Assembly: GCA_903857825.1 (NCBI GenBank)
Contig: CAIOGI010000009.1
Span: 7,203-71,202, forward strand
Source: Candidatus Tayloriibacteriota bacterium
GTDB lineage: Bacteria; Patescibacteriota; Minisyncoccia; Phycocordibacterales; PALSA-1337
Reading direction: 5' to 3'
DNA length: 64,000 bases
Positions 5,855 through 44,974 of this stretch are shown in pieces. The notes below the pieces were generated by a model. That model did not search any database. It was not told where the DNA came from and saw nothing but the letters and a program-made list of their open reading frames with translations. Both the position numbers and the translations under genes were made by a program. Position 1 is the first letter of the stretch, and each line of letters starts with the position of its first letter.

Positions 5855-7363
5855 ATGCAAGAGTCAACTTATCCACAAACAAAAAGGACAAATCTAACAT
5901 ATGGCCTACTGGCTGTGTTCTCTGCCGTTCTGATCTTGGGCGGTTTTTTTCGACTCTATAATCTGGGATCTCAGTCATATTGGATGGATGAAGGATATAC
6001 AATCAACGCGGTCAAGGCGATCCAAGAAAAGGGTTCGACAATTCTTGATTCAGGTCTTCCTTATTTTTGTCCTATGTACTGTTATCCGACGGCACTTATA
6101 TCAAACGCCTTAGGTGCTTCGCCGACAAGTTATCGCTTACTTTCAGTTTTGACAGGTCTGGCATTCATTGTAGCAATGTTTTTTATTACGCGAAAATTGT
6201 TCAATCAGAATGTAGCCATGTTAACATCTGTAGCACTGACTTTTTCATATTGGCAGATCGCATGGTCGCGCCAAGCTCGCTGGTACACCCTGTTTGCTTT
6301 ATTCTTCTGGGTTGCGCTTTATTTTTTTCATCAATCACTTTATGGAGAAAAGAACAGAGCTTGGCATGGTATTTTTGCTGTCGTTTTCACTATCTTCGCA
6401 ATTATGACTCATGGCTTGGGATACCTCTTGCCCTTGATATTCATCGGCTGGATCCTGATTGATCGAATATTCTTAGGCAAAAAAATGAACTTTGGATACC
6501 TGATCAAGGTGATCAGTACCATAGTTGTCTTGGCTACAATCTCGCTAGTATTTCTATCGCAAAAGTTTGGAATTCATTATGAGCTTCCCTACTATGTCAG
6601 TTTTTACATAAGAGCTTATTGGCTTTTCTTGATATTTTTGATAATCGGATTCTTTGCGATTACGCATTCAATGAAACGAGAAATGTATTTCTTACTTTTT
6701 GTTCTATTATCGTATCTTATTCCTCTCTCATTTCTAACAAACATAGTCCATTACAGATACCTTTTTCATGTCACTCCAGTATTCATACTGCTTGGCACAG
6801 CTGGCATGTTAGCGATCAATGATAATTTGAAAAATAACTACACGAAATCATCATTTTGGATCGTACTCACTATCCTATTCTTTACTATCGGCGGCGGAGT
6901 CTTTATTCCACGTACTGAATATTTTTTGGAATCCGATAATCCAGAAACAATCGGTGAGAGACCATCGTACGCCTATACACCGCAACCAGATTGGAATGCT
7001 GCATATGAATTTCTCGAGATAAACAGAGAGGAGGGAGACATTGTCATATCAAGTCAGCCGCAATTTACCAAGATTTTTCTTAATGATCCAGGATATTGGA
7101 TCAAGTACGACTATCTTGGTTTTGCAGACCAGGTAAAGGAACCTACAGGCGACACTGAATACTATGTTGGAGCAAAAGTAATTGATGATCTACAGGAACT
7201 TCAGGTAATTGCTTCGTCTGCGCATGGTTTTGTTATATTCGATCATATGTCCGCGGATGGAAAGATTGCGGAAAATATTATCAGCTACATTCGAGACAAT
7301 TTCAAGTTGGTGTTTGAAAAAAAGACAAACCCTTGGTCAGAGGTGTGGATTTATAAATTCTAA
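5855..7363 (+). CDS. GT-C fold integral membrane glycosyltransferase-like protein (ArnT/PMT, GT39/83-like)
   Basis: Eleven or more predicted TM helices. The N-terminal loop YWMDEGYTINA resembles the polyprenyl-P-sugar dependent GT-C transferases. Confidence 0.5.
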   Translation: MQESTYPQTKRTNLTYGLLAVFSAVLILGGFFRLYNLGSQSYWMDEGYTINAVKAIQEKGSTILDSGLPYFCPMYCYPTALISNALGASPTSYRLLSVLTGLAFIVAMFFITRKLFNQNVAMLTSVALTFSYWQIAWSRQARWYTLFALFFWVALYFFHQSLYGEKNRAWHGIFAVVFTIFAIMTHGLGYLLPLIFIGWILIDRIFLGKKMNFGYLIKVISTIVVLATISLVFLSQKFGIHYELPYYVSFYIRAYWLFLIFLIIGFFAITHSMKREMYFLLFVLLSYLIPLSFLTNIVHYRYLFHVTPVFILLGTAGMLAINDNLKNNYTKSSFWIVLTILFFTIGGGVFIPRTEYFLESDNPETIGERPSYAYTPQPDWNAAYEFLEINREEGDIVISSQPQFTKIFLNDPGYWIKYDYLGFADQVKEPTGDTEYYVGAKVIDDLQELQVIASSAHGFVIFDHMSADGKIAENIISYIRDNFKLVFEKKTNPWSEVWIYKF

Positions 7364-16940: not shown

Positions 16941-18323
16941 ATGAAAAATATCTGGCTTCTCACCGAAGAACGACCTAAAAACGATGTCATTCTCACTATT
17001 TTGAATAAGGTCGGGACAGACAATAATTTTAAAGTTCAATCTGAGGGTGCGAAGGTTATACCTATTATGAAAGATGGTTGTTTTACTTTTTTATACAAAG
17101 TTGAAGATGTTAAATGCGAAGGATTTGAAAATATATTTATTAAAATAGCCAGTGGTAATTCTAGCTTCGTCGATTTTTTGATATTTCTCCAAGAAGCAGA
17201 GCCTGATCAAAGTTCAAAACCTCTCTATGCAATAGAAGAAACGAAAACCGATGATTCAGAATCTCGTAACACAGGAGTCTACCAACGCTGTAGTAAGTTT
17301 GTATATGTAGAATTCTATTATCCGGGCATTAGGAAAATAATGCTCTACAGTTTGCAGATCAAGCAAAAAATAAAACCAACAGTAACCAATATTTTCGGCA
17401 CACGAATGCTACGAACGATAGGCGTTGAAATTCTTGGCAAAACATTTGATGAGGAAGTCATGAGACCATTCACGAGCCTCGATGAGCTAGTTCAAGCAAA
17501 GAGTGCTATGAGAATGCCCCCGACCGGTAATGTCCCTATTCAAATCGAGGTGCACCCTGACAAAATCACAGTATCAGGAAGGCTTTTTAAAGCTGGTGGG
17601 ATAGGCCATGACCCTAATATCGGCGCACTCACCATCATAGCTCTCTGTATTAGACGTTGGGAAAAAGAAAAGCCAATCATCATAACCAAACATGGTTTAT
17701 CTCAAGAACATCTTGGAAGAGGAAACAAATTTATTCAGATCGCCAACAGGCTCAATATCGGGCTTGATGGTTTAAATGTCCAAATTGCAACTCAACATGA
17801 GCTTTATTGGCATTATGAAATGTCCCAAGAAAAGCTAGCCACTATATTTCTCCACGTCCTATTACTCAATTACACGAAAGCAGAAGTCATCTATGCCAAC
17901 CATGGAGGCACGGAGAGAGGATACTTTATGCACAAAGTTCAGGGACCGATCGTGATTGAGAAATATCAAGAAGGAAAACGAGCCGCATATAAGCTTGGCG
18001 ACAAATCTCTGATTATTCACTTACCAGACATGATCATTTTTGATACTGCTAGAAATCAGATCATCAATGTCGAGGGTAAAAAGTATAGTACACGAGCAGC
18101 TGGTATCGAGGAGTTGGCAAACTATTCCTACATTGAAGAAAAAGTGATTCTACCTTCACATAGTCCTTCGGCTTTTATCAGGACCGTTGTTGTTTTTGGT
18201 AGCAAAGAAACTGAACTTAAGGAAAAAGAGATCGGATTTATGCTAAATGAAAATGGAGATCTTGTGTTGGGTAAATATGCTCCTGAAATATTTAAAGAAG
18301 TAGTATCAAAAGCTACAGCCTAG
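16941..18323 (+). CDS. candidate type II restriction endonuclease (context only)
   Basis: 460-aa ORF convergent with the adjacent adenine MTase and overlapping it tail-to-tail by 4 nt. No conserved motif; this is the usual R-M layout. Confidence 0.3.
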   Translation: MKNIWLLTEERPKNDVILTILNKVGTDNNFKVQSEGAKVIPIMKDGCFTFLYKVEDVKCEGFENIFIKIASGNSSFVDFLIFLQEAEPDQSSKPLYAIEETKTDDSESRNTGVYQRCSKFVYVEFYYPGIRKIMLYSLQIKQKIKPTVTNIFGTRMLRTIGVEILGKTFDEEVMRPFTSLDELVQAKSAMRMPPTGNVPIQIEVHPDKITVSGRLFKAGGIGHDPNIGALTIIALCIRRWEKEKPIIITKHGLSQEHLGRGNKFIQIANRLNIGLDGLNVQIATQHELYWHYEMSQEKLATIFLHVLLLNYTKAEVIYANHGGTERGYFMHKVQGPIVIEKYQEGKRAAYKLGDKSLIIHLPDMIIFDTARNQIINVEGKKYSTRAAGIEELANYSYIEEKVILPSHSPSAFIRTVVVFGSKETELKEKEIGFMLNENGDLVLGKYAPEIFKEVVSKATA

Positions 18324-19441
18324 GCCTCTTGTAACGCCAAGTCTTTTTTCTTTAGCTTCCCCACCCTTTTATTTCCAACCTGAGAATTCTCTAGAATATA
18401 TAATTGCTCCTGAATAGTTTTCATATGCTTCGAGTCTCCGTTGCTATTGCTTTTAAACCTGAGGTAATCAATATTCTGCAATGTTACTCGTCCATACTTC
18501 TCTAGAGTTGCAATGATATCTTTCTCAGGCATTGCACCTTCAGAATTGTAGCTCAAAATCAGATAGCGGTATTTAGCTGTTTTTGCCACCTTATCTAAGG
18601 CAAGAAGTGCTGTATTTTTATTACAAAAATCAGATTTTTGATTCTTGTAATCTCTCATTCCTGTTACACCCTTAATCGCAGGACTGTCGTATCGTGCGAT
18701 TGTTTCCAAGAGATGATAGTTCGGTGCATATTGCCGATGGTTATAAGGAGGATCCATATAGAGTATGTCTACATCTAAATCTTCCACTAGATCCATACTG
18801 TTCCTGTTGAACACAGTATGCTCTTTGTCGCCTGAATAAAAACTCATTTCTTTAATTTGAAGCGGCTTTAACGCTCTAGGGTCATACTCCTTAAGAAAAG
18901 CTGCATAGACACCTGAAATATTTGCATAGAAAGGTACACTTTCAATAAGAGAAGCGAGAAGTACAAAATACTCATTTTCATTTATTAATTTTTCTTTCCA
19001 CCATTCTTCTATCAAAAGTCTTATAGCATCAATCTTCTTACCATTCTCGGGTAGAAAGAATTTTCTTTTATGTTCCTGATCCTTAGTTCCTTCATCAGTA
19101 TAATTTTTGTAAATAAAACCTTTAACACCTTTCAATTCGTTCAAATAACTTCTTACAGAATCAAAAGGAGAAGCAAAAAGAATGTTCGATGAGACATCAA
19201 GTGTTTTCAGCAGTTTTTTAAACTCAGGTTCACCATTATTTTCTATATAAGCTTTTTGGAGTACATAAGAAAAATAGAGTAAATCAGAAGACACAATCTC
19301 AAATCCTTTTTCCTTAAAGAATCTTCCAACATTTGAAGTACCAGAAAAGAAATCGCAAAAAACCCCATCTTTTACGCCAGTCGAGGTTACGGCTTGGTAG
19401 ATTCGATCCAGCAATTTTTCTTTGTTGCCAATAAATCTCAT
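18320..19441 (-). CDS. N6-adenine DNA methyltransferase, D12/alpha class
   Basis: Motif X RFIGNKEKLL, motif I FFSGTSNVG, motif IV YMDPPY. Confidence 0.75.
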   Translation of the reverse strand: MRFIGNKEKLLDRIYQAVTSTGVKDGVFCDFFSGTSNVGRFFKEKGFEIVSSDLLYFSYVLQKAYIENNGEPEFKKLLKTLDVSSNILFASPFDSVRSYLNELKGVKGFIYKNYTDEGTKDQEHKRKFFLPENGKKIDAIRLLIEEWWKEKLINENEYFVLLASLIESVPFYANISGVYAAFLKEYDPRALKPLQIKEMSFYSGDKEHTVFNRNSMDLVEDLDVDILYMDPPYNHRQYAPNYHLLETIARYDSPAIKGVTGMRDYKNQKSDFCNKNTALLALDKVAKTAKYRYLILSYNSEGAMPEKDIIATLEKYGRVTLQNIDYLRFKSNSNGDSKHMKTIQEQLYILENSQVGNKRVGKLKKKDLALQEA

Positions 19442-19442
19442 A

Positions 19443-21008
19443 TTAATAGTTTGTGATTAACAGCTCTGCCACCTTGCCGCGCTGATCTTTTTTACTATTC
19501 AAAGTTCGACCAGAGAAAACTTGCTGAATTTTATAACCCTTATAAAGATCCCGAATGAATTCACAATCTGAATTGGAGAGCATCACTTTACAGCCCTTCT
19601 TATCCAAATGATCAATTTTTTCCTTCAGTCTTATTTGATCCTCTTTATGGAATTTCTCTTTAGTATAACGAGTGAAATCAGAATAAACTGATATAGGATA
19701 GTAAGGAGGATCGAGATAAACAAAATCATTAGTGCCAGCATCATTTACCGCCATCTCAAAATCTACTTCTTTTATTGCCACATTTTTTAGAACCGCACTA
19801 GCACTTCTGATTGTATGTTCATCACATATAAGCCGATTGAGAGAGCTGCCTATTGGTACATTAAACTGCCCTTTTTGATTGACCCTATAGATACCATTAA
19901 AACAGGTCTGATTTAGATAAATCATTCTTGCAGCAATTTCAGCTGAATTCAATTTTTGGAAAATATCAATTTCCCGATCTAAATTTCTTACTAAAGGATA
20001 TAATTCTTTTGAGTGTTTTGATCGTAACTCCTTAAGCAGTCTGATCACTTCTTCTGGATTGTCTCGTATACCCTCATACGCCCTGATCAATTCAGTATTG
20101 TTGTCGGCCAGAATCGCCTTTTGAGGTTGGAGATGGAAAAACATTGCCCCTCCACCGAGAAAAGGTTCGTAGTAAGAATTGAATTTTTTAGGTAGAAACT
20201 GTTCGTATTGAGAAATCATCCCTCTCTTGCCTCCTACCCATTGAAGAAAAGGTGTTGCCTTCTCATCTGGTGAAGAATTTGTCTCTCTTTTTACATTTGC
20301 AGTCAGAGGCATGCGTTTCAATAATTTCGTCAATTCGCTTTCATGCGTGTGTACTGATTCAAGCTCTCTAATAATTTTTACAACTACGCCTCTGATCTCA
20401 ACTTCAGTTCTAAAAAAAGGAAGTAGGTTTTGATTTGCCGGTTGCAAACGGAATCTCCCCTTTTCCTTGTAAATCTTTTTTAAGGTTGCCTGATTATCAT
20501 CAATAATTGCGACTACAGTTTGACCATCTTCTGCACTTTGCTGTTCTCGTATAACGACAATATCACCATCAAATATTCCATCATCGATCATGCTGCTTCC
20601 AGCCACCTTTAAAGCGTAGTGCTTTCCTGCATTGGGTATTTCACCCTGAGACAGTACCAACATCTCACCGTGCCTTTCTACTGCTTCAATAGGCAATCCG
20701 GCAGCAATAGTACCTAGAATTGGGACATGAACACTGCCAAGAGCCTTTTTAGGGGCAACAGCTCGAGGTTGATTGATCTCTTTATAAATCAAGCCAGCTT
20801 CCTCAAGTTTTTTTACATGATGATGAGCTGTAGATACCGAAGAAAGTTTTAAATGTCCTTTTATTTCTTCAAGAGAAGGGGCGAACCCATGCTTTTTACT
20901 ATAGGTAGTAAGAAAATCTAATGTCTGTTTTTGTCTTTTAGTTATCATATTACACTTTCGATTTATTTTCGATATCATAATTATAGCGCCACCTAAATTA
21001 AGAAGCAA
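19443..21008 (-). CDS. LexA-like autocleavable repressor (wHTH + S24 peptidase) fused to a Dam-type GATC adenine methyltransferase
   Basis: N-terminal half: MITKRQKQTLDFL..., cleavage site IAAGLP, GSSM (Ser nucleophile), ATLKK (Lys). C-terminal half: FLQWVGGK, FLGGGAMFF, FVYLDPPY, collinear with E. coli Dam. The likely true start is the ATG at 20948 (MITKRQ). Confidence 0.75.
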   Translation of the reverse strand: MLLNLGGAIIMISKINRKCNMITKRQKQTLDFLTTYSKKHGFAPSLEEIKGHLKLSSVSTAHHHVKKLEEAGLIYKEINQPRAVAPKKALGSVHVPILGTIAAGLPIEAVERHGEMLVLSQGEIPNAGKHYALKVAGSSMIDDGIFDGDIVVIREQQSAEDGQTVVAIIDDNQATLKKIYKEKGRFRLQPANQNLLPFFRTEVEIRGVVVKIIRELESVHTHESELTKLLKRMPLTANVKRETNSSPDEKATPFLQWVGGKRGMISQYEQFLPKKFNSYYEPFLGGGAMFFHLQPQKAILADNNTELIRAYEGIRDNPEEVIRLLKELRSKHSKELYPLVRNLDREIDIFQKLNSAEIAARMIYLNQTCFNGIYRVNQKGQFNVPIGSSLNRLICDEHTIRSASAVLKNVAIKEVDFEMAVNDAGTNDFVYLDPPYYPISVYSDFTRYTKEKFHKEDQIRLKEKIDHLDKKGCKVMLSNSDCEFIRDLYKGYKIQQVFSGRTLNSKKDQRGKVAELLITNY

Positions 21009-35159: not shown

Positions 35160-37382
35160 TTACCCCTCGATACTTATCTCCTCCGGCCTCGTGTAGCACC
35201 TACAACTCACATGGAGTGGCGGAGATCCAACATCGCTGTATGAAATATCAAGCTGTGATCCGTCAGCACCCGTGTGGGTATCGCCTTTATCATAGAAATT
35301 GTCATCGATGCCAATCACTTTGCCATTCATGTTCTCGCACCAAGGGCAGACCATTTCATCAGCTGCTGTGTACCACTTAATGGTCTTCACTACTCCTGTC
35401 TGCTTCCATGCTTCCTTGGTTGAATCATTGGCAATTCGGAATGTTTCCGTTCGAGCAACCTGAGCAGCGCGGACCTCATCACTAAATGCGTAAATATTTG
35501 AGATTTTACTTGTAAGTTCAGGAAGTGACGCACCTTCAGCCAAGCCTTCCTCAATTCCATCTTTCAAAAGTCCGAGAGTTGTGTCGTTGTAGCTTTCTGC
35601 AAGAAGTTTCATAGCTCGCTCAAGAGCAAGGCGTACTTCGGAGGTGAGTCTGAATCCGCTTGAGCCAAGAAGTTGCATTGCTTCAGCTCCTTCGTTTGTA
35701 TATAGATCTGTTAGTATTGGATTGGAAAGGTCAATCATTGCACCTACCCACGTCTCACGATTAAATATATCCTCTACTACTATTTTCCAGCCCTTCTTAT
35801 CAAAGAATCTGTTTAGATTTGCGATAACCACTGCTTTCTGATTATTGTTAAACTTCTTGATCCCCTCGATCATTAAATTCTCATAGCGAGTAACTCGAAG
35901 TACAAAACCTTTATAAAGAACTTCATATTCAGCGTGAGATAGATTTGATAAATCCTTGCGAGCTTTCTGCTTTACTTCTTCAAATTGCTTTTTACTTGCA
36001 TCAATGGAATCAGCCACTCGTTTTGCAATTTCTTCAGACATAACTTTTCGTGCTTTTGTATTCTTTGCACCCCGAGTCGAAGGTTTCTTGTCTCCCGTAC
36101 TTGTTTTTCTACCTGAACGATTGACTGACTTAGGTTTTGGCTTACCGAGAGCAATCTTTGAGAAATCAGTCATAACATTTTCCCCGTTATCAATTCCATC
36201 GAGTCCGAAGTATTCTTCACGGGCTTCGTTAACACTCATGACTGGCTGACCTGCAAGAGCTGCTTTCATTTCTTCAGTCTTCTGTAGCCTGTCCTCTGGG
36301 ACCGGATCTACAAAATCGAGATATAGGTTGTCACCATATCGAGGCACAAGAAATTCATTGAGTTGTTGAACGATCATTTCCATCTTCGGTTTTATGGTTC
36401 GAGCTGCAAAAACATAATTTGAGGTTTCTGCGGTCGCTCGATTGGTTTCTGATTCTGATCCTCCGAGAATTGTTTTGGGAACACGGAAACCCGCAAGGAT
36501 TTTGTCTCGCATAACTTGCTGGAGATTGGCGAAGTCCATATCTTTCGGATTACTTGAGGCTTCGTCATACTTCACACCTTTCGGAAGTACTGCTACTCGA
36601 TATGCATTGCCTGCACCTTTGTAAAGATTCTCAAATGAGGCACGGAGTACCTTCATCTGTGCATCAGTAATTGCGTTCTCGGAACTCAAGAGTCCACCGA
36701 GACGCGCACCATTTTTGAAATAGTTGAGATTAACCTCAGATGCAAAATTATCAGAATCTATCCAATCGAGAATTGCCTGGACTGTACCGATACCTTGATA
36801 CGGATCATTGGGATCTGGATATTTCAAATGCAGAATTTGCGCCTGCTTGTATGTAACAGTTTTTCCATCTATCGAATAACTGTATCCCTTAATGAATTCT
36901 GGAAGCGGTGCAGGAATCGGATTTGTATATCGAGGATTCAAAAGAAATATTGCTTTTGGTTTATCAGTATCTTTTTCAACCCCATCCAATAGCCAATATG
37001 AATTACCTGAAAGCTCAAGATGTGATCCTGTAAGATACCGAAGTTCGTATCCAGTTTGGAAGGGATTCACCCCATCGAGTAAATCAAGAAGCTCATGATC
37101 AAATATTTCTTCATGCACTCCATCCTTATTCACCTGGAACAGCCGGAAGGAAATCTTTGCAAGTTCTTCTGCAATCGCACGGATAGCGGCATACGTCCAT
37201 GCGTTATATGTACCCATCGCTTTATCAATCGACACTTTTCTTGAGCGACTCCAAAGAGTGAACGGATCATCGTTTGAAAGACCAGAAGCAAGCGGGGGAT
37301 TTAATCCTTTGCGAGTGAGACCTATGAGTTTTAATGTCTTATCGAAAATATTCATACAAATAAAAAAGGGCTTGCGGTGCAA
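35160..37382 (-). CDS. portal protein fused to a C-terminal MuF/SPP1 gp7-like head morphogenesis domain
   Basis: The N-terminal 450 aa are portal-like. The C-terminus ...ARTETFRIANDS...WYTAADEMVCPWCENMNGKVIGID is the Phage_Mu_F motif. Confidence 0.7.
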   Translation of the reverse strand: MHRKPFFICMNIFDKTLKLIGLTRKGLNPPLASGLSNDDPFTLWSRSRKVSIDKAMGTYNAWTYAAIRAIAEELAKISFRLFQVNKDGVHEEIFDHELLDLLDGVNPFQTGYELRYLTGSHLELSGNSYWLLDGVEKDTDKPKAIFLLNPRYTNPIPAPLPEFIKGYSYSIDGKTVTYKQAQILHLKYPDPNDPYQGIGTVQAILDWIDSDNFASEVNLNYFKNGARLGGLLSSENAITDAQMKVLRASFENLYKGAGNAYRVAVLPKGVKYDEASSNPKDMDFANLQQVMRDKILAGFRVPKTILGGSESETNRATAETSNYVFAARTIKPKMEMIVQQLNEFLVPRYGDNLYLDFVDPVPEDRLQKTEEMKAALAGQPVMSVNEAREEYFGLDGIDNGENVMTDFSKIALGKPKPKSVNRSGRKTSTGDKKPSTRGAKNTKARKVMSEEIAKRVADSIDASKKQFEEVKQKARKDLSNLSHAEYEVLYKGFVLRVTRYENLMIEGIKKFNNNQKAVVIANLNRFFDKKGWKIVVEDIFNRETWVGAMIDLSNPILTDLYTNEGAEAMQLLGSSGFRLTSEVRLALERAMKLLAESYNDTTLGLLKDGIEEGLAEGASLPELTSKISNIYAFSDEVRAAQVARTETFRIANDSTKEAWKQTGVVKTIKWYTAADEMVCPWCENMNGKVIGIDDNFYDKGDTHTGADGSQLDISYSDVGSPPLHVSCRCYTRPEEISIEG

Positions 37383-37976
37383 ACCTTCTTCGTGAGAAGA
37401 AGACTTACATCACAAGCCCTCTGGGGTATCCAGTCGGACTATACGAACACAATTTTGAAAGGTACTGTTACATCATATCGGACCAACAACATTCACACCA
37501 GAGAGTGTGTGGATAAATAATTTCATTGAAAAATGTTGCTGTTCCTATATCGTGACATGTTCCTGATCATCAATATCCATGCTTTTACGAAGTAGTTCAT
37601 TTCTCCTATCTCCCAACTTCTTCTCAAGACGAATTATTTCTTCATCGGTTCCATGAGCAAGTGTTTGACTGATATATTCCATGTCAGGATTTTCACCATA
37701 TGCATTACTAAGTTCGGCCACATGATTCATCACTTCTTTTTTTGTATCTTCTATATTCATAACAATATTGTACCAATAATTTATTTTTTTTGCATTCCTA
37801 TAGTTCCTTTACCTCAAAATCATTCGGATCAGTTGGCTTCTTCTGGACTGTATATTCTACTAGAGTGACTTTCTTTTCATTAACTCTAAGAACAATCTGA
37901 CCATGTGGAATTTTATCGGCAAGCTCCATGATGTCCTGCCATTCTTTCGTTATTTCTTTCATAATTCTGGTTGGTA

Positions 37977-39967: not shown

Positions 39968-41095
39968 CTATTTTCGTTTGACCCTTGTAAATACTAGCTT
40001 TTCCACGATCGCCTGAACGACGTTTACCGTTACCGCATTACCCAAGCACTTGTACCTTTGAGTGTCGCTTGCACCGAGAGTCCACTCGTCAGGAAAGCCT
40101 TGTAACCGTTCACACTCCATAGGCGTAAGGCGACGAATTTTCTGTAGCCCTTTGACGGCATACAGTCCCGTCTTCGCCCCAAGGCCTCCTGCTTGGCTTG
40201 CAAGAGTCGTGGCTATACCTCTTGCATCATATATTCGACTTCCTTGTGGAAAGTTACGACTAAGTTGTTTCCCATCATCAAGCCATTTCTTATTCTTCTC
40301 GCTCATGACAGCTCCGATATATTTCAAATCTTTATGTGCCGGTCTTTTACCAACATAAGTTCCGTTCGAGTCTGCGGTAACACGTGTCGTGATGGTTGGT
40401 AGGATAATATCCTCGCTTGCGTTTTGGGAGAGAGGAAATACTTCCGGTCTGGGCGTGCCTCTAAGATGTCCGACAATGAAGACTCGCTCTCTGTTCTGGG
40501 GTACTCCGAAATTCTTGCTGTTAAGCACCTGCCATTGGAGGTCATACCCAAGACCATCCAGTGTGCGGAGGATAATGCCGAAGGTACGCCCTTTCTCGTG
40601 AGAGAGAAGCCCTTTAACATTCTCAAGGAGTAGAAGCCGTGGTCTTTTGGTAGCGATAATGCGAGCAATCTCAAAGAACAATGTCCCTCGAGTGTCTTCA
40701 AAGCCCTTTCTCTTGCCGGCAATAGAGAAAGATTGGCAAGGAAAACCTCCAATGAGTAGGTCGAAATCGGGTAGATCTCTTGATTTGATTTTTCTGATGT
40801 CTCCATAATTTGTGTGCTTGAAATATTTTTCATAAATTTTGATTGCGTGTTTGTCGATCTCGGAGTAACCCACGCAAGTAAGCGATTCTTGTCGTAAGCC
40901 GTCGCAGTGATGGTGTTTGCAAGATAGTCCTCCCTCGGTACCAACTTCTTTAGACTTCTTGTATCCTTTACCACCCCGAGCCTTCGAAGTCGCTTTGCCT
41001 CCTCTGTCCTTCTTTCTGTTAACTGTTTCCACATATGCGTTGTGTATGCCGAGTTCGAAGCCTCCAATTCCCGAAAAGAGACTGAAGTACCTCAT
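39968..41095 (-). CDS. DNA cytosine-5 methyltransferase
   Basis: FSGIGG (I), GGFPCQSFS (IV), LLLENV (VI), QNRERVFIVG (VIII). A ~50-aa Lys/Gly-rich insertion with CKHHHCDG follows motif I. Confidence 0.9.
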   Translation of the reverse strand: MRYFSLFSGIGGFELGIHNAYVETVNRKKDRGGKATSKARGGKGYKKSKEVGTEGGLSCKHHHCDGLRQESLTCVGYSEIDKHAIKIYEKYFKHTNYGDIRKIKSRDLPDFDLLIGGFPCQSFSIAGKRKGFEDTRGTLFFEIARIIATKRPRLLLLENVKGLLSHEKGRTFGIILRTLDGLGYDLQWQVLNSKNFGVPQNRERVFIVGHLRGTPRPEVFPLSQNASEDIILPTITTRVTADSNGTYVGKRPAHKDLKYIGAVMSEKNKKWLDDGKQLSRNFPQGSRIYDARGIATTLASQAGGLGAKTGLYAVKGLQKIRRLTPMECERLQGFPDEWTLGASDTQRYKCLGNAVTVNVVQAIVEKLVFTRVKRK

Positions 41096-42402
41096 TGCTT
41101 TATTTTATTAATTCTCTCCCATCTATTGCGTATAACATCGCAGAACTTAGGATCAAGCTCGATCATGTATGCCCGTCGGCCGACCTTTTCCGCTGCAGCC
41201 ATTGTGCTGCCGGACCCTCCGAATGGATCGAGAACGATGTCATTTCTTTTTGTGGAATTGCGAAGCGCTCTCATTGCAAGCCAGTCTGGTTTCTCTGTCG
41301 GATGGAGATAATGAGCTACTGCCTTTCTTGGCATTTCCCAGACGTCGTATTCATTGTCGCCGTAAAATTTATGAGTGCCTTCTTTCCAGCCGTAAATGAT
41401 GCTTTGTGCCGTTTTTGGATCAGGCTTTTTTGCACGAGCTATCCATTCATGCTTGTAGCGATAATCATTCCATCCCATACTCGGCACGTTCTTCACCCAG
41501 ATGATCACTCCGGAATGCTGGAAACCATTTTGAAACATGCTTTGGAGAAATTGTGGATACGAGCTCCAACCTGAGCAGATGTAGAAGGAAGATCCCTCTT
41601 TAGTGTTGAAGAACATCTCATGGAAGGCTCCGTCTATAAATGTCTTGAAATCGGCGTCGTTCATATTGTCGTTTTTGATTGATTCATTGCCTTCGTCTTT
41701 TAATTTCTCGCCACGACTTTTATAGTTGACGTTGTACGGTGGATCAGTGAAGACCATATCAGCTTTTTCCTTTCCGAGAAGTTTTCTATACGTCTCTGGG
41801 TCGGTCGAATCTCCGCAAATCAACCTATGTGACCCGAGCTCATAAATTTCGCCAAGCTTTGAGCGTGGTTCCTTTTCAGATTCATCGCCTTCACCCTCAT
41901 CTTCCTCCTCGTCCTCAAGAGTCTGATCGAGTATCCGACTAATCTCGTCGTCTCGAAATCCTGAGGCGGGAATTGATGGAGATTCTTTGAGATCAACAAT
42001 TATTTCAAAGAGCTTTTTTTCATCCCACTTTCCCTTTATTTTATTTAGTGCAAGATTGAGGAGCTTTTCTTCTGCAAGGTGCAAATCCACGAGATTTGCG
42101 GGAATATAGGCCACTCCATCCTTGGTTTCTATGCCCTTTATAGCCTCACTTTGGGCCACAAGCCCCTCTACGGCGGTAGTTCTTTGGTGACCTCCTACCA
42201 GGACCCATTTTCGGTCGCCACATTCGTCACAGGTGTGAGTGTTTACCACAACAGACTCCACAAAGCCGAAGGTCTTGATACTTGTCTTCAAGGCCGCCAT
42301 TTCGATCTCTGGCATGATGCGGGGATTGTATTCAGCGCGCCTCAGGTCGGTTATTTTAATTTTGGTCGCTTCCATAGGTTTCTGCGAATTTGATTCGCGC
42401 AT
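41092..42402 (-). CDS. ParB-like nuclease domain fused to a beta-class N6A/N4C DNA methyltransferase
   Basis: N-terminus VLVGGHQR (ParBc). MVFTDPPYN (motif IV) precedes LDPFGGSGST (motif I), which is the beta-class order. Confidence 0.8.
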   Translation of the reverse strand: MRESNSQKPMEATKIKITDLRRAEYNPRIMPEIEMAALKTSIKTFGFVESVVVNTHTCDECGDRKWVLVGGHQRTTAVEGLVAQSEAIKGIETKDGVAYIPANLVDLHLAEEKLLNLALNKIKGKWDEKKLFEIIVDLKESPSIPASGFRDDEISRILDQTLEDEEEDEGEGDESEKEPRSKLGEIYELGSHRLICGDSTDPETYRKLLGKEKADMVFTDPPYNVNYKSRGEKLKDEGNESIKNDNMNDADFKTFIDGAFHEMFFNTKEGSSFYICSGWSSYPQFLQSMFQNGFQHSGVIIWVKNVPSMGWNDYRYKHEWIARAKKPDPKTAQSIIYGWKEGTHKFYGDNEYDVWEMPRKAVAHYLHPTEKPDWLAMRALRNSTKRNDIVLDPFGGSGSTMAAAEKVGRRAYMIELDPKFCDVIRNRWERINKIKQ

Positions 42403-42738: not shown

Positions 42739-43152
42739 TTAATTAATTGTGATAATTATTTCGACCCGACCTTTCCCATCCTTGGCGATTTCGCTTTTGA
42801 ATGAGCCGTCGAGATTCTTGTCGTTGTAAAAGAGAGCGTCAGCGATTGAGCCAAAGATATTCTCGGGATCGCCATGAGTGTTGTCTTTCCAGAAAATACG
42901 GATATCCATGACTGCTTTCTGACCCTCATCGAGCTTGATTGGTTTTTTGGCGACCCGCAGGGACCGCACGTAGACTTTGAAATCGATGCTTACGAGGGAT
43001 CGGAGGAATTCATCTTGGACATATACTTTCCATGCAGTGTATCTCTGAGCTTCTGGCGTCCACTGCTGCCGATATGTTTTTCTGATCTTCGGTATGGCAT
43101 TTCCCAGCCTGTCTTCCTGATTGCCGTTTAGTGTAAATGAGAATTGCTTCAT
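42739..43152 (-). CDS. RusA-like Holliday junction resolvase, candidate
   Basis: 137 aa. GDPENIFGSIADALFYNDKNL resembles the RusA catalytic D-x-DN region. Confidence 0.35.
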   Translation of the reverse strand: MKQFSFTLNGNQEDRLGNAIPKIRKTYRQQWTPEAQRYTAWKVYVQDEFLRSLVSIDFKVYVRSLRVAKKPIKLDEGQKAVMDIRIFWKDNTHGDPENIFGSIADALFYNDKNLDGSFKSEIAKDGKGRVEIIITIN

Positions 43153-43715
43153 GGTTTTTGATTAGTGGTTTTTAAAGAGAACCGATCCGTGAGATCCGCC
43201 CTGAGCCTTAAAAACTCAGGGCGGTTATCCACAGGTGGATCGGTCGAACCCCTAATACTAGGTTTCTCTTTGTTTCCTTGGTTTTGTGTGTCTACTAGGT
43301 AGACCGATTTTGGTCTATTCTTTAGACCACTTTTGGTCAATTTTCTAGACTGGTCTACTAGATTGACTACTTTATCCACAGCCATTTCGAGATTAATTTT
43401 ATAGAAATTCCCTTTGCTGTTTTTGATCGAAATGACTACCCCTGCACGGACCAGATTTTTGAGCCCTTGTGAGACTGACTGGCGGGACAATCCAGTGCCA
43501 TAATCAAGAACCACACCTCTCCGGTCCTTGATCCCTTCCATAAATTGCGAAAAACTAATGCGATCCGATTCCTTTTGAAAACCAAAGGTGCGACGGCATA
43601 TGTAAATTAAGCATCGTGCTTCAGCTTCAGGAATAAGAGGAATAATTTTGTCGAGAAGAATATTTGGTAACTGAGTGCTATTCGGTATTAAATTGTATTT
43701 TTTGTGTTCTTCCAT
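43149..43715 (-). CDS. replication initiator (phage replisome-organiser N-terminal-like wHTH); coding region contains ori-like iterons
   Basis: N-terminal YNLIPNSTQLPNILLDKIIPL..EARCLIYICRRTFG pattern. GGTCTA/TAGACC repeats and a 10-bp hairpin lie in its 3' third (43197-43370). Confidence 0.5.
   Translation of the reverse strand: MEEHKKYNLIPNSTQLPNILLDKIIPLIPEAEARCLIYICRRTFGFQKESDRISFSQFMEGIKDRRGVVLDYGTGLSRQSVSQGLKNLVRAGVVISIKNSKGNFYKINLEMAVDKVVNLVDQSRKLTKSGLKNRPKSVYLVDTQNQGNKEKPSIRGSTDPPVDNRPEFLRLRADLTDRFSLKTTNQKP
43285..43370. repeat. iteron-like cluster of GGTCTA/TAGACC direct and inverted repeats (candidate phage origin)
   Basis: tctactaggtagacc, ttttggtcta-ttcttt-agacca, ttttggtcaa, ctagactggtctactag. 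Confidence 0.45.
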
Positions 43716-43828: not shown

Positions 43829-44974
43829 CTATTTTGTTTTTGCCTTGGCCTCTGTTTTCTTGGCTGGCTTTTCGACCTTTGGTTCCGCTTGTTTCACCTC
43901 CGCAGCTTGTATCTGAATATGCTTCTGCACGAAGTCCTGGACTCTCTTGAATCCAGCTTCCAATGCTTCAGGTCGCAATGATTCGACTACCGTCCAGCTC
44001 ATGGTATCGAATGCGTATTTGATAGCGTCGATTTTGAGCTTCTTCTGGTCAGCAGATTGTCCTGGCCAAACAGAGACAAGATAGTTCTCGATCTCCTCAA
44101 GCCAACGCTTTTTCATCTGCTTCCACTCGTACTTCTCTTCCTCTGTTCGGAAGAGCGTTCCTGCATCACGTTCAGCGGTAGTCTCAAGTTTTTCGGGAGC
44201 TTCGAGCATCACATCGATCGCTGGTGCAAAGTCTTTGAAGTCAGGATTTTCGAATACCTTGCCATCGATTACTGTTGAACGGTCTTTGATGACAATGCCC
44301 TGTCTTGTTACCTTTTTAATCGAACCTCCTTCCATCTCCTGCATGCGTTCCATGAGGACAAGGAGATCTGGCTCGTAGGCTGTCTCTCCCTCGACCTTCA
44401 TCTTTATTCCCGACTTATAAATTTCTCTTTTTCCAGTTTCCTTATTGATCTCATTCTCATATTCATATCCGGCACGTCCGGTCATGATGATGTGATAAGG
44501 ATCGCGAACGAAGACATCGGAGAACTCTGTTTTCCATGTGGGTTTAATCACACCCCAGTCTTGGAATTCCAATCTGGTGCGTCGGACTTTCTCTGCGTAT
44601 GATTTGAGGAAGTCCTCCCAGACATGACTGATAGAGTCGATGATGAGAACATCGCTTGCGCCTTCTCTCATGCGGGTCATCGTTTCTTTGAGGTCGGCGA
44701 GGGATTTTGATTCGCGGACCATTACCTCGATTCCTTCCGCTGCAAACATGGATTTGAGGAACTTAGCCGCTTTCTCGGTGTCAAAGATAATGACTGGTTT
44801 CTTTGATCCGACTCTCTTATGTAGACCTATGGCAACTTTCGCTGCCGTGTAGGTTTTCCCCGTTCCGGCGAAGCCTTCGAAGGCTGCCTTGAAGTAGGGC
44901 TTGGTGTTGCCAATCAATGCGAAGAAGTTATCTTGCACTCTTGGCTTACCTGTTGTTAAATTTTGTGTGTTCAT
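43829..44974 (-). CDS. RecA-fold AAA ATPase (Sak4-like phage replication/recombination protein)
   Basis: Walker A GFAGTGKT, Walker B LIIDSISH. Lys-rich tail. Confidence 0.55.
   Translation of the reverse strand: MNTQNLTTGKPRVQDNFFALIGNTKPYFKAAFEGFAGTGKTYTAAKVAIGLHKRVGSKKPVIIFDTEKAAKFLKSMFAAEGIEVMVRESKSLADLKETMTRMREGASDVLIIDSISHVWEDFLKSYAEKVRRTRLEFQDWGVIKPTWKTEFSDVFVRDPYHIIMTGRAGYEYENEINKETGKREIYKSGIKMKVEGETAYEPDLLVLMERMQEMEGGSIKKVTRQGIVIKDRSTVIDGKVFENPDFKDFAPAIDVMLEAPEKLETTAERDAGTLFRTEEEKYEWKQMKKRWLEEIENYLVSVWPGQSADQKKLKIDAIKYAFDTMSWTVVESLRPEALEAGFKRVQDFVQKHIQIQAAEVKQAEPKVEKPAKKTEAKAKTK

Follow-up and report, generated by a model that had tools for sequence, protein, structure and literature searches.

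A probable replication origin inside the lambda O-like initiator gene of a Patescibacteria prophage

The 64,000-nucleotide stretch of contig CAIOGI010000009.1 from a Candidatus Tayloriibacteriota bacterium that is analyzed here (the window) contains an integrated prophage, one of whose open reading frames (ORFs) encodes a 188-residue replication initiator of the Phage_rep_O family, the family of the phage lambda O protein. Examination of this gene and its homologs, combined with analogies to well-characterized replicons, leads us to propose that codons ~113-164 of the initiator gene probably double as the replication origin of the prophage. In this segment, four dyad-symmetric repeats (iterons) and an A-rich tract are bracketed by two perfect DnaA boxes, and the DNA is conserved beyond what the encoded protein appears to require. 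The first-pass annotation had placed origin-like GGTCTA/TAGACC repeats in the 3' third of ORF 43149-43715, which is right, with the ORF lying on the minus strand; the repeats that it cited ('ttttggtcta' at 43308-43317, 'ttttggtcaa' at 43331-43340 and 'ctagactggtctactag' at 43345-43361) are all present and resolve into four dyads. The two DnaA boxes were overlooked.

The origin layout occupies codons 113-164 of the initiator gene, with the four iterons at codons 117-142. In the sense direction of the gene, the order is DnaA box 1, iterons A to D joined by A4 linkers, a 38-nt A-rich tract, an 18-nt G+C-rich spacer, DnaA box 2 and a hairpin:

43149..43715, minus strand: initiator gene, 188 residues, read from 43715 to 43149, encoding the Phage_rep_O protein
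43372..43380, plus strand: DnaA box 1, perfect, TTATCCACA on the plus strand and TGTGGATAA in gene sense, encoding V113-D114-K115
43353..43367: iteron A, in reading frame 0 and nearest the 5' end of the gene; sense-strand sequence GTCAATCTAGTAGAC
43336..43350: iteron B, in reading frame 2; sense-strand sequence GTCTAGAAAATTGAC
43313..43327: iteron C, in reading frame 1; sense-strand sequence GTCTAAAGAATAGAC
43290..43304: iteron D, a perfect dyad in reading frame 0; sense-strand sequence GTCTACCTAGTAGAC
43252..43289, minus strand: candidate DNA-unwinding element; the gene-sense strand (ACACAAAACCAAGGAAACAAAGAGAAACCTAGTATTAG) is A-rich and the plus strand pyrimidine-rich
43234..43251: GGTGGATCGGTCGAACCC, the G+C-rich spacer that separates the A-rich tract from DnaA box 2
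43225..43233, plus strand: DnaA box 2, perfect, TTATCCACA on the plus strand and TGTGGATAA in gene sense, encoding V162-D163-N164
43196..43224, minus strand: hairpin, CCGCCCTGAG-N9-CTCAGGGCGG, a perfect 10-bp inverted repeat with a 9-nt loop
43181..43244: outer 8-bp inverted repeat, ACCGATCC / GGATCGGT, extending the hairpin to a 64-bp imperfect palindrome around DnaA box 2

The iterons are four copies of a 15-bp dyad unit, GTCTAnnnnnTAGAC, with start-to-start distances of 23, 23 and 17 bp from the lowest coordinate upward; iteron C is flanked by phased A4/T4 tracts (43308-43311 and 43331-43334). With up to one mismatch allowed, the iteron motif is found at five sites in the window, four of which fall within these 78 bp, and neither a second iteron cluster in the window nor another candidate origin in the replication module was detected. 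The spacer holds a 12-nt lineage-specific insertion (codons 157-160). A second A+T-rich stretch (43390-43419, 73% A+T) lies 5' of DnaA box 1 in gene sense, where the wing of the winged-helix domain is encoded, and it is in this stretch, at codon ~101, that synonymous conservation begins to rise. Clustering of GATC (Dam) sites at the origin was considered and dismissed, given that the four sites in 400 bp compare with 4.7 per kb across the window.

The initiator matches the Pfam family Phage_rep_O (PF04492) over residues 14-98 with 37.7 bits against a cut-off of 28.7 (E = 3e-9) and PHROG 678, 'replication initiation O-like', with E = 4e-19; in a BLASTP comparison, residues 2-60 align with residues 18-77 of lambda O (E = 2e-5), that is, with the N-terminal part only. 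A search for Rep_3-type domains, the two-winged-helix Rep architecture of RepE, TrfA and pi, produced no match in the initiator, only Phage_rep_O, and no sequence relatives of the initiator were found in the PDB. Two regions can be delineated: a lambda-O-like winged-helix domain (residues ~15-110) and a tail (residues ~111-188) that is encoded by the origin DNA. In the AlphaFold2 model, the predicted local distance difference test score (pLDDT) is 80-91 for residues 30-110, including a predicted recognition helix (residues 78-91) followed by a β-hairpin wing, also at 80-91, and drops to 45-66 for residues 125-165. The protein ends 24 codons past DnaA box 2 and lacks the C-terminal domain of lambda O, a correction to the lambda analogy as it was first drawn.

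The central question is whether the conservation of the tail-encoding segment reflects selection on the DNA or on the protein. To address it, 117 related loci were collapsed to 84 distinct genes for a codon alignment, and more than 200 homologous proteins were examined. The iterons start at offsets 3, 20, 43 and 66 of an 87-nt block and thus occupy reading frames 0, 2, 1 and 0, encoding the unrelated peptides VNLVD, (Q)SRKLT, (G)LKNR(P) and VYLVD. Their presence in three different frames rules out an explanation by amino acid repeats, the first of two grounds on which the initial proposal could have failed. The second, absence from homologs, has not materialized either: the 87-nt block is free of indels in 81 of the 84 distinct genes, with the four iterons at fixed offsets and half-sites that change in concert. 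Among sequence pairs that share the amino acid, synonymous codon identity is 0.76 for codons 112-164 compared to 0.43 for codons 1-110 (Mann-Whitney p = 1.7e-15), and it peaks over the A-rich tract (codons 143-156) at 0.83, the highest value in the gene. Thus, given the three iteron frames, the indel-free block, the shared half-site type, the synonymous identity and the low pLDDT of the tail, the segment is under purifying selection that acts mainly on the DNA. For genome annotation, this implies that the conserved 'protein' tail largely represents conservation at the DNA level and is not to be taken as a protein domain.

A second line of evidence comes from the joint evolution of the iterons and the protein. 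The half-site type differs among lineages (the window has GTCTA; other lineages have GTTCA(G), GTTAA/GTAAA, GTTCG/GTCCG or less frequent types), and all four copies in a locus are of the same type: the commonest 5-nt half-site of a locus fills 5.15 of its own 8 half-sites versus 0.34 of 8 in loci of other types. The best predictor of the iteron type in the protein is residue 79, the second residue of the predicted recognition helix (mutual information normalized to entropy, MI/H = 0.88):

residue 79 Q: half-site GTCTA
residue 79 A: half-site GTTCA
residue 79 P: half-site GTTAA / GTAAA
residue 79 S: half-site GTTCG

These pairs recur across several separate clades of a neighbor-joining tree of the N-terminal domain that was built with residues 76-84 excluded; Fitch parsimony yields about 17-19 changes, a number raised by errors in the tree and by recombination. 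This covariation could be due to a recognition code or to the co-transfer of the helix and the origin as a module, and either one would imply that the initiator binds these repeats, so the covariation lends indirect support to the binding of the initiator to its own iterons. Mixed iteron sets, with outer copies of the GTTCAG type and inner copies of the GTCTAG or GTATAG type, were observed in five loci (L027, L028, L045, L096 and L097) and may be intermediates or recombinants between specificity types.

The two DnaA boxes, both of which read TTATCCACA(G) and between which the iterons are bracketed, are among the most conserved parts of the origin. The window contains four perfect boxes compared to about 0.74 expected from its base composition; the other two perfect TTATCCACA sites are isolated, one in host DNA (5869-5877, plus strand) and the other in phage DNA close to where the portal and terminase genes meet (37508-37516, minus strand). 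The density of perfect boxes across all loci is 4.75 per kb for the 260-nt origin segments versus 0.054 per kb for the flanking DNA (423 kb), an approximately 88-fold enrichment. Among the short-form homologs (<215 residues), a box with at most one mismatch occupies the position of DnaA box 1 in 59 of 64, and a box is found at the position of DnaA box 2 in 60 of 64. Furthermore, 18 loci have, 10 nt beyond box 2, a perfect box that points the opposite way (TTATCCACA, encoding LST), and in several loci both boxes are present, back to back. Box 2 thus behaves as a DNA element, being kept in either orientation with different encoded residues, VDN or LST.

The distribution of the boxes is different in the long-form homologs (238-302 residues), where the downstream box is present in only 2 of 21 genes and the upstream box in 5 of 21. 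The long form comprises approximately a quarter of the homologs (loci L036, L038, L042, L043, L045, L095-L098, L102 and others; proteins P0070, P0081, P0103 and P0105) and continues past the origin segment into an additional C-terminal domain, which places the origin in mid-gene as in lambda O. This extra domain has no match in Pfam or PHROG, and its identity with the C-terminal domain of lambda O was rejected for lack of similarity. Beside both long- and short-form initiators, no helicase or loader genes were recognized, and the neighborhoods are the same, the gene upstream encoding a Sak4-like ATPase and those downstream RusA and methylases. These observations suggest a trade-off between the C-terminal domain of the initiator and the boxes for host DnaA in helicase recruitment.

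We propose the following scenario. Dimers of the 188-residue initiator would bind the four 15-bp dyad iterons via the winged-helix domain, with residue 79 setting the half-site specificity, and this binding, together with the phased A-tracts, would wrap and bend the DNA in a structure akin to the 'O-some' of lambda. The stress of wrapping might be released by melting of the adjoining conserved A-rich tract (43252-43289), and host DnaA bound at the two flanking boxes could assist in this opening and recruit the host helicase, in the manner described for Rep proteins at iteron-plasmid origins. The helicase-recruiting part of this scenario is suggested by the lack of a C-terminal domain that would bind a lambda P-like partner and by the composition of the replication module, among the scanned genes of which no phage helicase, loader or primase was recognized. 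We infer these functional steps (initiator binding, site of unwinding, involvement of DnaA and helicase loading) from sequence and from analogy with known replicons. A bolder version of the hypothesis, which we advance only tentatively, holds that the initiator lost or never had the loader-recruiting C-terminal domain and embeds an oriC-like DnaA module instead, that replication is licensed by host DnaA, and that the residue-79 code is readable. If that is the case, the C-terminal domain and the DnaA boxes would be evolutionary alternatives for helicase recruitment, and a natural recognition code would pair residue 79 Q/A/P/S with the half-sites GTCTA/GTTCA/GTTAA/GTTCG.

Could the same features be explained without an origin? 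The array might be an operator only, whereby the O-like protein autoregulates or blocks transcription within its own gene, with DnaA as a co-repressor, and replication starts elsewhere. Initiator repeats and DnaA boxes are indeed also transcriptional control sites in plasmids and in lambda, where DnaA acts at pR (PMC7466680), and the sites are located within a transcribed operon, given the ATGA overlap between the initiator stop codon and the next start codon; moreover, assignment as an origin derives from sequence features. We nevertheless consider the operator explanation unlikely, because the full lambda package (dyad iterons, A-tract linkers and the A-rich tract) follows the same protein domain in the order seen in lambda, and neither another iteron cluster in the window nor another origin candidate in the replication module was seen. 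The possibility that the array is a partition or packaging site, either centromere-like and serving the neighboring ParB-domain methylase or a pac site, appears highly improbable. The ParB_N-N6 methyltransferase gene is indeed ~1 kb downstream, and parS and pac sites are also typically clustered dyad repeats, but the iteron type varies in step with the recognition helix of the O-like protein that this DNA itself encodes, no role of DnaA boxes in packaging is known, and the terminase genes are ~4 kb away. The least credible explanation, in our view barely tenable, is that the repeats and boxes are by-products of protein constraint, such as LVDQ / LVDTQ repeats, or of chance, and have no function as DNA. 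The tail is conserved in amino acids, with invariant KVV, Q122, Q144 and G147; two of the four iterons encode LVD, and both boxes encode V-D-K/N in the same frame. However, this explanation is hard to reconcile with the three iteron frames, with synonymous sites that are far more conserved than those of the folded domain, with half-sites that switch jointly in all four copies, with the flipped box 2 that encodes LST in place of VDN, or with the predicted disorder of the segment.

The hairpin requires separate consideration. The perfect 10-bp hairpin reported in the initiator gene by the first-pass annotation is present, but at 43196-43224 rather than 43199-43226, a shift of 2-3 nt, and it is confined to one sublineage with the tail NR(P/L)E(F/L)…, so it is not a core element of the origin. 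A single hairpin of this kind carries little weight by itself: the expectation for a 64-kb Markov-1 sequence is about 0.85 perfect 10-bp hairpins, and 53% of the simulations contained one or more. The local DNA fold (43176-43250) has an energy of -22.4 kcal/mol (z = -6.3), and in 14 sequences of the sublineage, the stem is paired in 91.8% of the cells compared to at most 52% when the partner strand is slid. Four stem pairs carry compensatory changes in both partners, such as the replacement of C-G by U-A that six sequences share at one position, but this covariation rests on few independent events. An intrinsic terminator was discounted, with no U-tract and no call from the terminator scan at the hairpin, and so was a known RNA, with no Rfam matches at E ≤ 1. 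The hairpin could function in DNA or in mRNA, and we regard it as an accessory of one sublineage that might form a DNA cruciform or single-strand structure, or else an mRNA stem. A role in mRNA rather than in origin DNA, as a stabilizing 3' stem or a modulator of translational coupling for the RusA-like gene, is a real possibility, if not the one that we favor. On the sense strand, several stem positions are G·U or U·G pairs that would be C·A mismatches on the opposite strand, and the stem of 10 bp in DNA grows to 13 pairs in sense-strand RNA. The hairpin also lies ~45 nt before the overlapping start codon of the downstream gene, and it is dispensable in most homologous origins. Conversely, there is no U-tract, terminator-like call or Rfam family to support an RNA element, the events behind the covariation are few, and the exact abutment to DnaA box 2 along with the outer inverted repeat that encloses this box in the window (and is present, besides, in L112 only) suggests a DNA palindrome.

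Several observations weigh against the identification of codons ~113-164 as an origin that opens with the help of host DnaA. The 38-bp candidate unwinding tract, despite its strong strand asymmetry (plus-strand purine fraction of 0.27-0.33), is only 60-67% A+T, close to the average composition of the host. The general bacterial consensus of the DnaA box, TTATNCACA, is near-universal, being common to most bacteria (PMC10797057), but may not be that of the Patescibacteria host itself. The link between the short protein and the DnaA boxes amounts to only about 2-3 independent events on the tree, and three homologs of ~200 residues have no boxes. Part of the conservation could act on the protein, considering that residues 113-132, in the iteron-coding stretch, are predicted to be helical (pLDDT 66-78). 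The hairpin is missing from most homologs and so cannot be essential to the origin, let alone one of its core elements. Finally, the cumulative G+C skew, proposed at the outset as a check, is monotonic and shows no inflection at 43 kb, but it is confounded by the one-strand orientation of the phage genes and hence is uninformative.

The genomic setting shows that the ~25-kb element is an integrated prophage in a Patescibacteria genome, as attested by the terminase and portal genes, a G+C island extending from ~21 to 46 kb (about 0.45 versus about 0.35 outside) and cellular genes on both flanks (GAPDH, dihydroorotate dehydrogenase, a major facilitator superfamily transporter and PAP2). All phage genes are on one strand, the minus strand in this part of the window. 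The genes that matter for the present discussion are the following:

43829-44974: Sak4-like ATPase, upstream neighbor of the initiator gene
42739-43152: RusA-like resolvase, downstream neighbor, the ATG of which overlaps the initiator stop codon
37977-39440: large terminase
35160-37382: portal

Further downstream of the initiator gene, an ORF at 41092-42402 (minus strand), ~1 kb away, encodes an N6/N4 DNA methylase with a fused ParB_N domain and is followed by a C5 cytosine methylase (39968-41095); many homologous loci show this order beside the initiator gene. A 521-residue ORF at the left G+C boundary of the prophage (19443-21008, minus strand) unites in one protein a LexA DNA-binding domain, an S24 peptidase domain and an adenine methyltransferase of the D12 (Dam) type, an unusual kind of repressor-methylase fusion, and is adjoined by an ORF for a second D12 methyltransferase (18320-19441, minus strand).

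The closest relatives of the initiator (94-97% identity) are encoded on 108-204-kb contigs of three metagenome-assembled genomes labeled Ca. Taylorbacteria / Saccharibacteria, and the source names of further homologs include Patescibacteria, Nomurabacteria and Doudnabacteria. Apart from a 54-nt methylase fragment, the window has no nucleotide similarity to known phages, and in tblastn searches against known phages, only the N-terminal domain (residues 8-117) was matched. To our knowledge, almost nothing has been established experimentally on the replication of phages of Patescibacteria, also known as the Candidate Phyla Radiation (CPR). The present analysis offers a concrete, sequence-defined candidate origin and initiator for a widespread group of these phages, and the series that connects a single initiator residue to half-site specificity is directly testable.

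How does this putative origin compare with those already known? With the origins of iteron plasmids (P1 oriR, F, pSC101 and RK2), it shares the combination of initiator repeats, host DnaA boxes and, as a candidate here, an A+T-rich unwinding element in a compact origin, and in P1 oriR, the DnaA boxes are likewise located at both ends. The differences are no less clear: the initiator in the window is a single winged-helix Phage_rep_O protein rather than a two-winged-helix Rep, the iterons are internally dyad-symmetric, which would imply binding of a dimer, and the entire origin is translated as a part of the initiator. At iteron-plasmid origins, DnaA boxes assist the Rep protein (PMC10797057).

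The segment 43225-43262 is also reminiscent of E. coli oriC. In sense orientation, the window reads 5'-CCTAGTATTAG-GGGTTCGACCGATCCACC-TGTGGATAA, to be compared with 5'-CTCTTATTAG-GATCGCACTGCCC-TGTGGATAA in oriC, and the A-rich tract lies 5' of TGTGGATAA in the same orientation as the right 13-mer relative to R1. Moreover, CCTAGTATTAG read 3'→5' is GAT-TAT-GAT, which fits the (NAN)x3 / 3'-GAT-5' rule for DnaA-trios (PMC8287927). The window has, however, just three trio-like units, and an A-rich tract can fit NAN by chance; the spacer of 18 bp exceeds the 16-bp limit given in the same work (PMC8287927), whereas in homologs that lack the 12-nt insertion, it is about 6 bp. We take the resemblance to the oriC unwinding module as only a lead.

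The closest parallel is with lambda, and the likeness goes further than the initial claim of an origin within the initiator gene, the order of the domain, the four dyad iterons and the A-rich tract being that of the lambda genome (NC_001416). Situated in the middle of O, the origin of lambda consists of four 18-bp hyphenated dyads joined by adenines and an AT-rich region of 39 bp (PMC6022878; PMC7466680). Both initiators belong to the same N-terminal family (Phage_rep_O; PHROGs 678, 277, 2365, 5810 and 18020), and in both cases the origin lies inside the initiator ORF, right after the N-terminal domain. Each has four hyphenated-dyad iterons about two helical turns apart (20/24/23 bp in lambda and 17/23/23 bp in the window), joined by A-tracts and placed in different reading frames; the annotated iterons of lambda are at O codons 117-145, in frames 0, 2, 2 and 1. 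After iteron 4, the sense strand carries an A-rich tract that starts with ACACAAAA in lambda and in the window alike. Among lambdoid phages, the iteron sequence and the specificity of the N-terminal domain vary together; this covariation, established for that group, is computed here for the Patescibacteria phage family.

The similarity is one of architecture, given that direct alignment of the two origins as DNA reveals a comparable layout and no meaningful sequence identity. The iterons are 15 bp in the window versus 18 bp in lambda and are unrelated in sequence; the 188-residue initiator ends soon after the origin and lacks the C-terminal domain that binds P in lambda, and its gene has no P-like loader gene as a neighbor in the window, the downstream gene being RusA-like; two perfect DnaA boxes flank the iterons and the A-rich tract, whereas none is annotated in ori-lambda; and the host is a Patescibacteria (CPR) bacterium. 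Thus, the lambda-type design with the origin inside the gene is known, and what would be new, judging from the sequences compared here, is the truncated O protein, the DnaA boxes within the reading frame and the occurrence of this design in Patescibacteria phages. The 'origin inside gene O' layout of lambda would then reach far past the lambdoid phages of enterobacteria and appears to be old.

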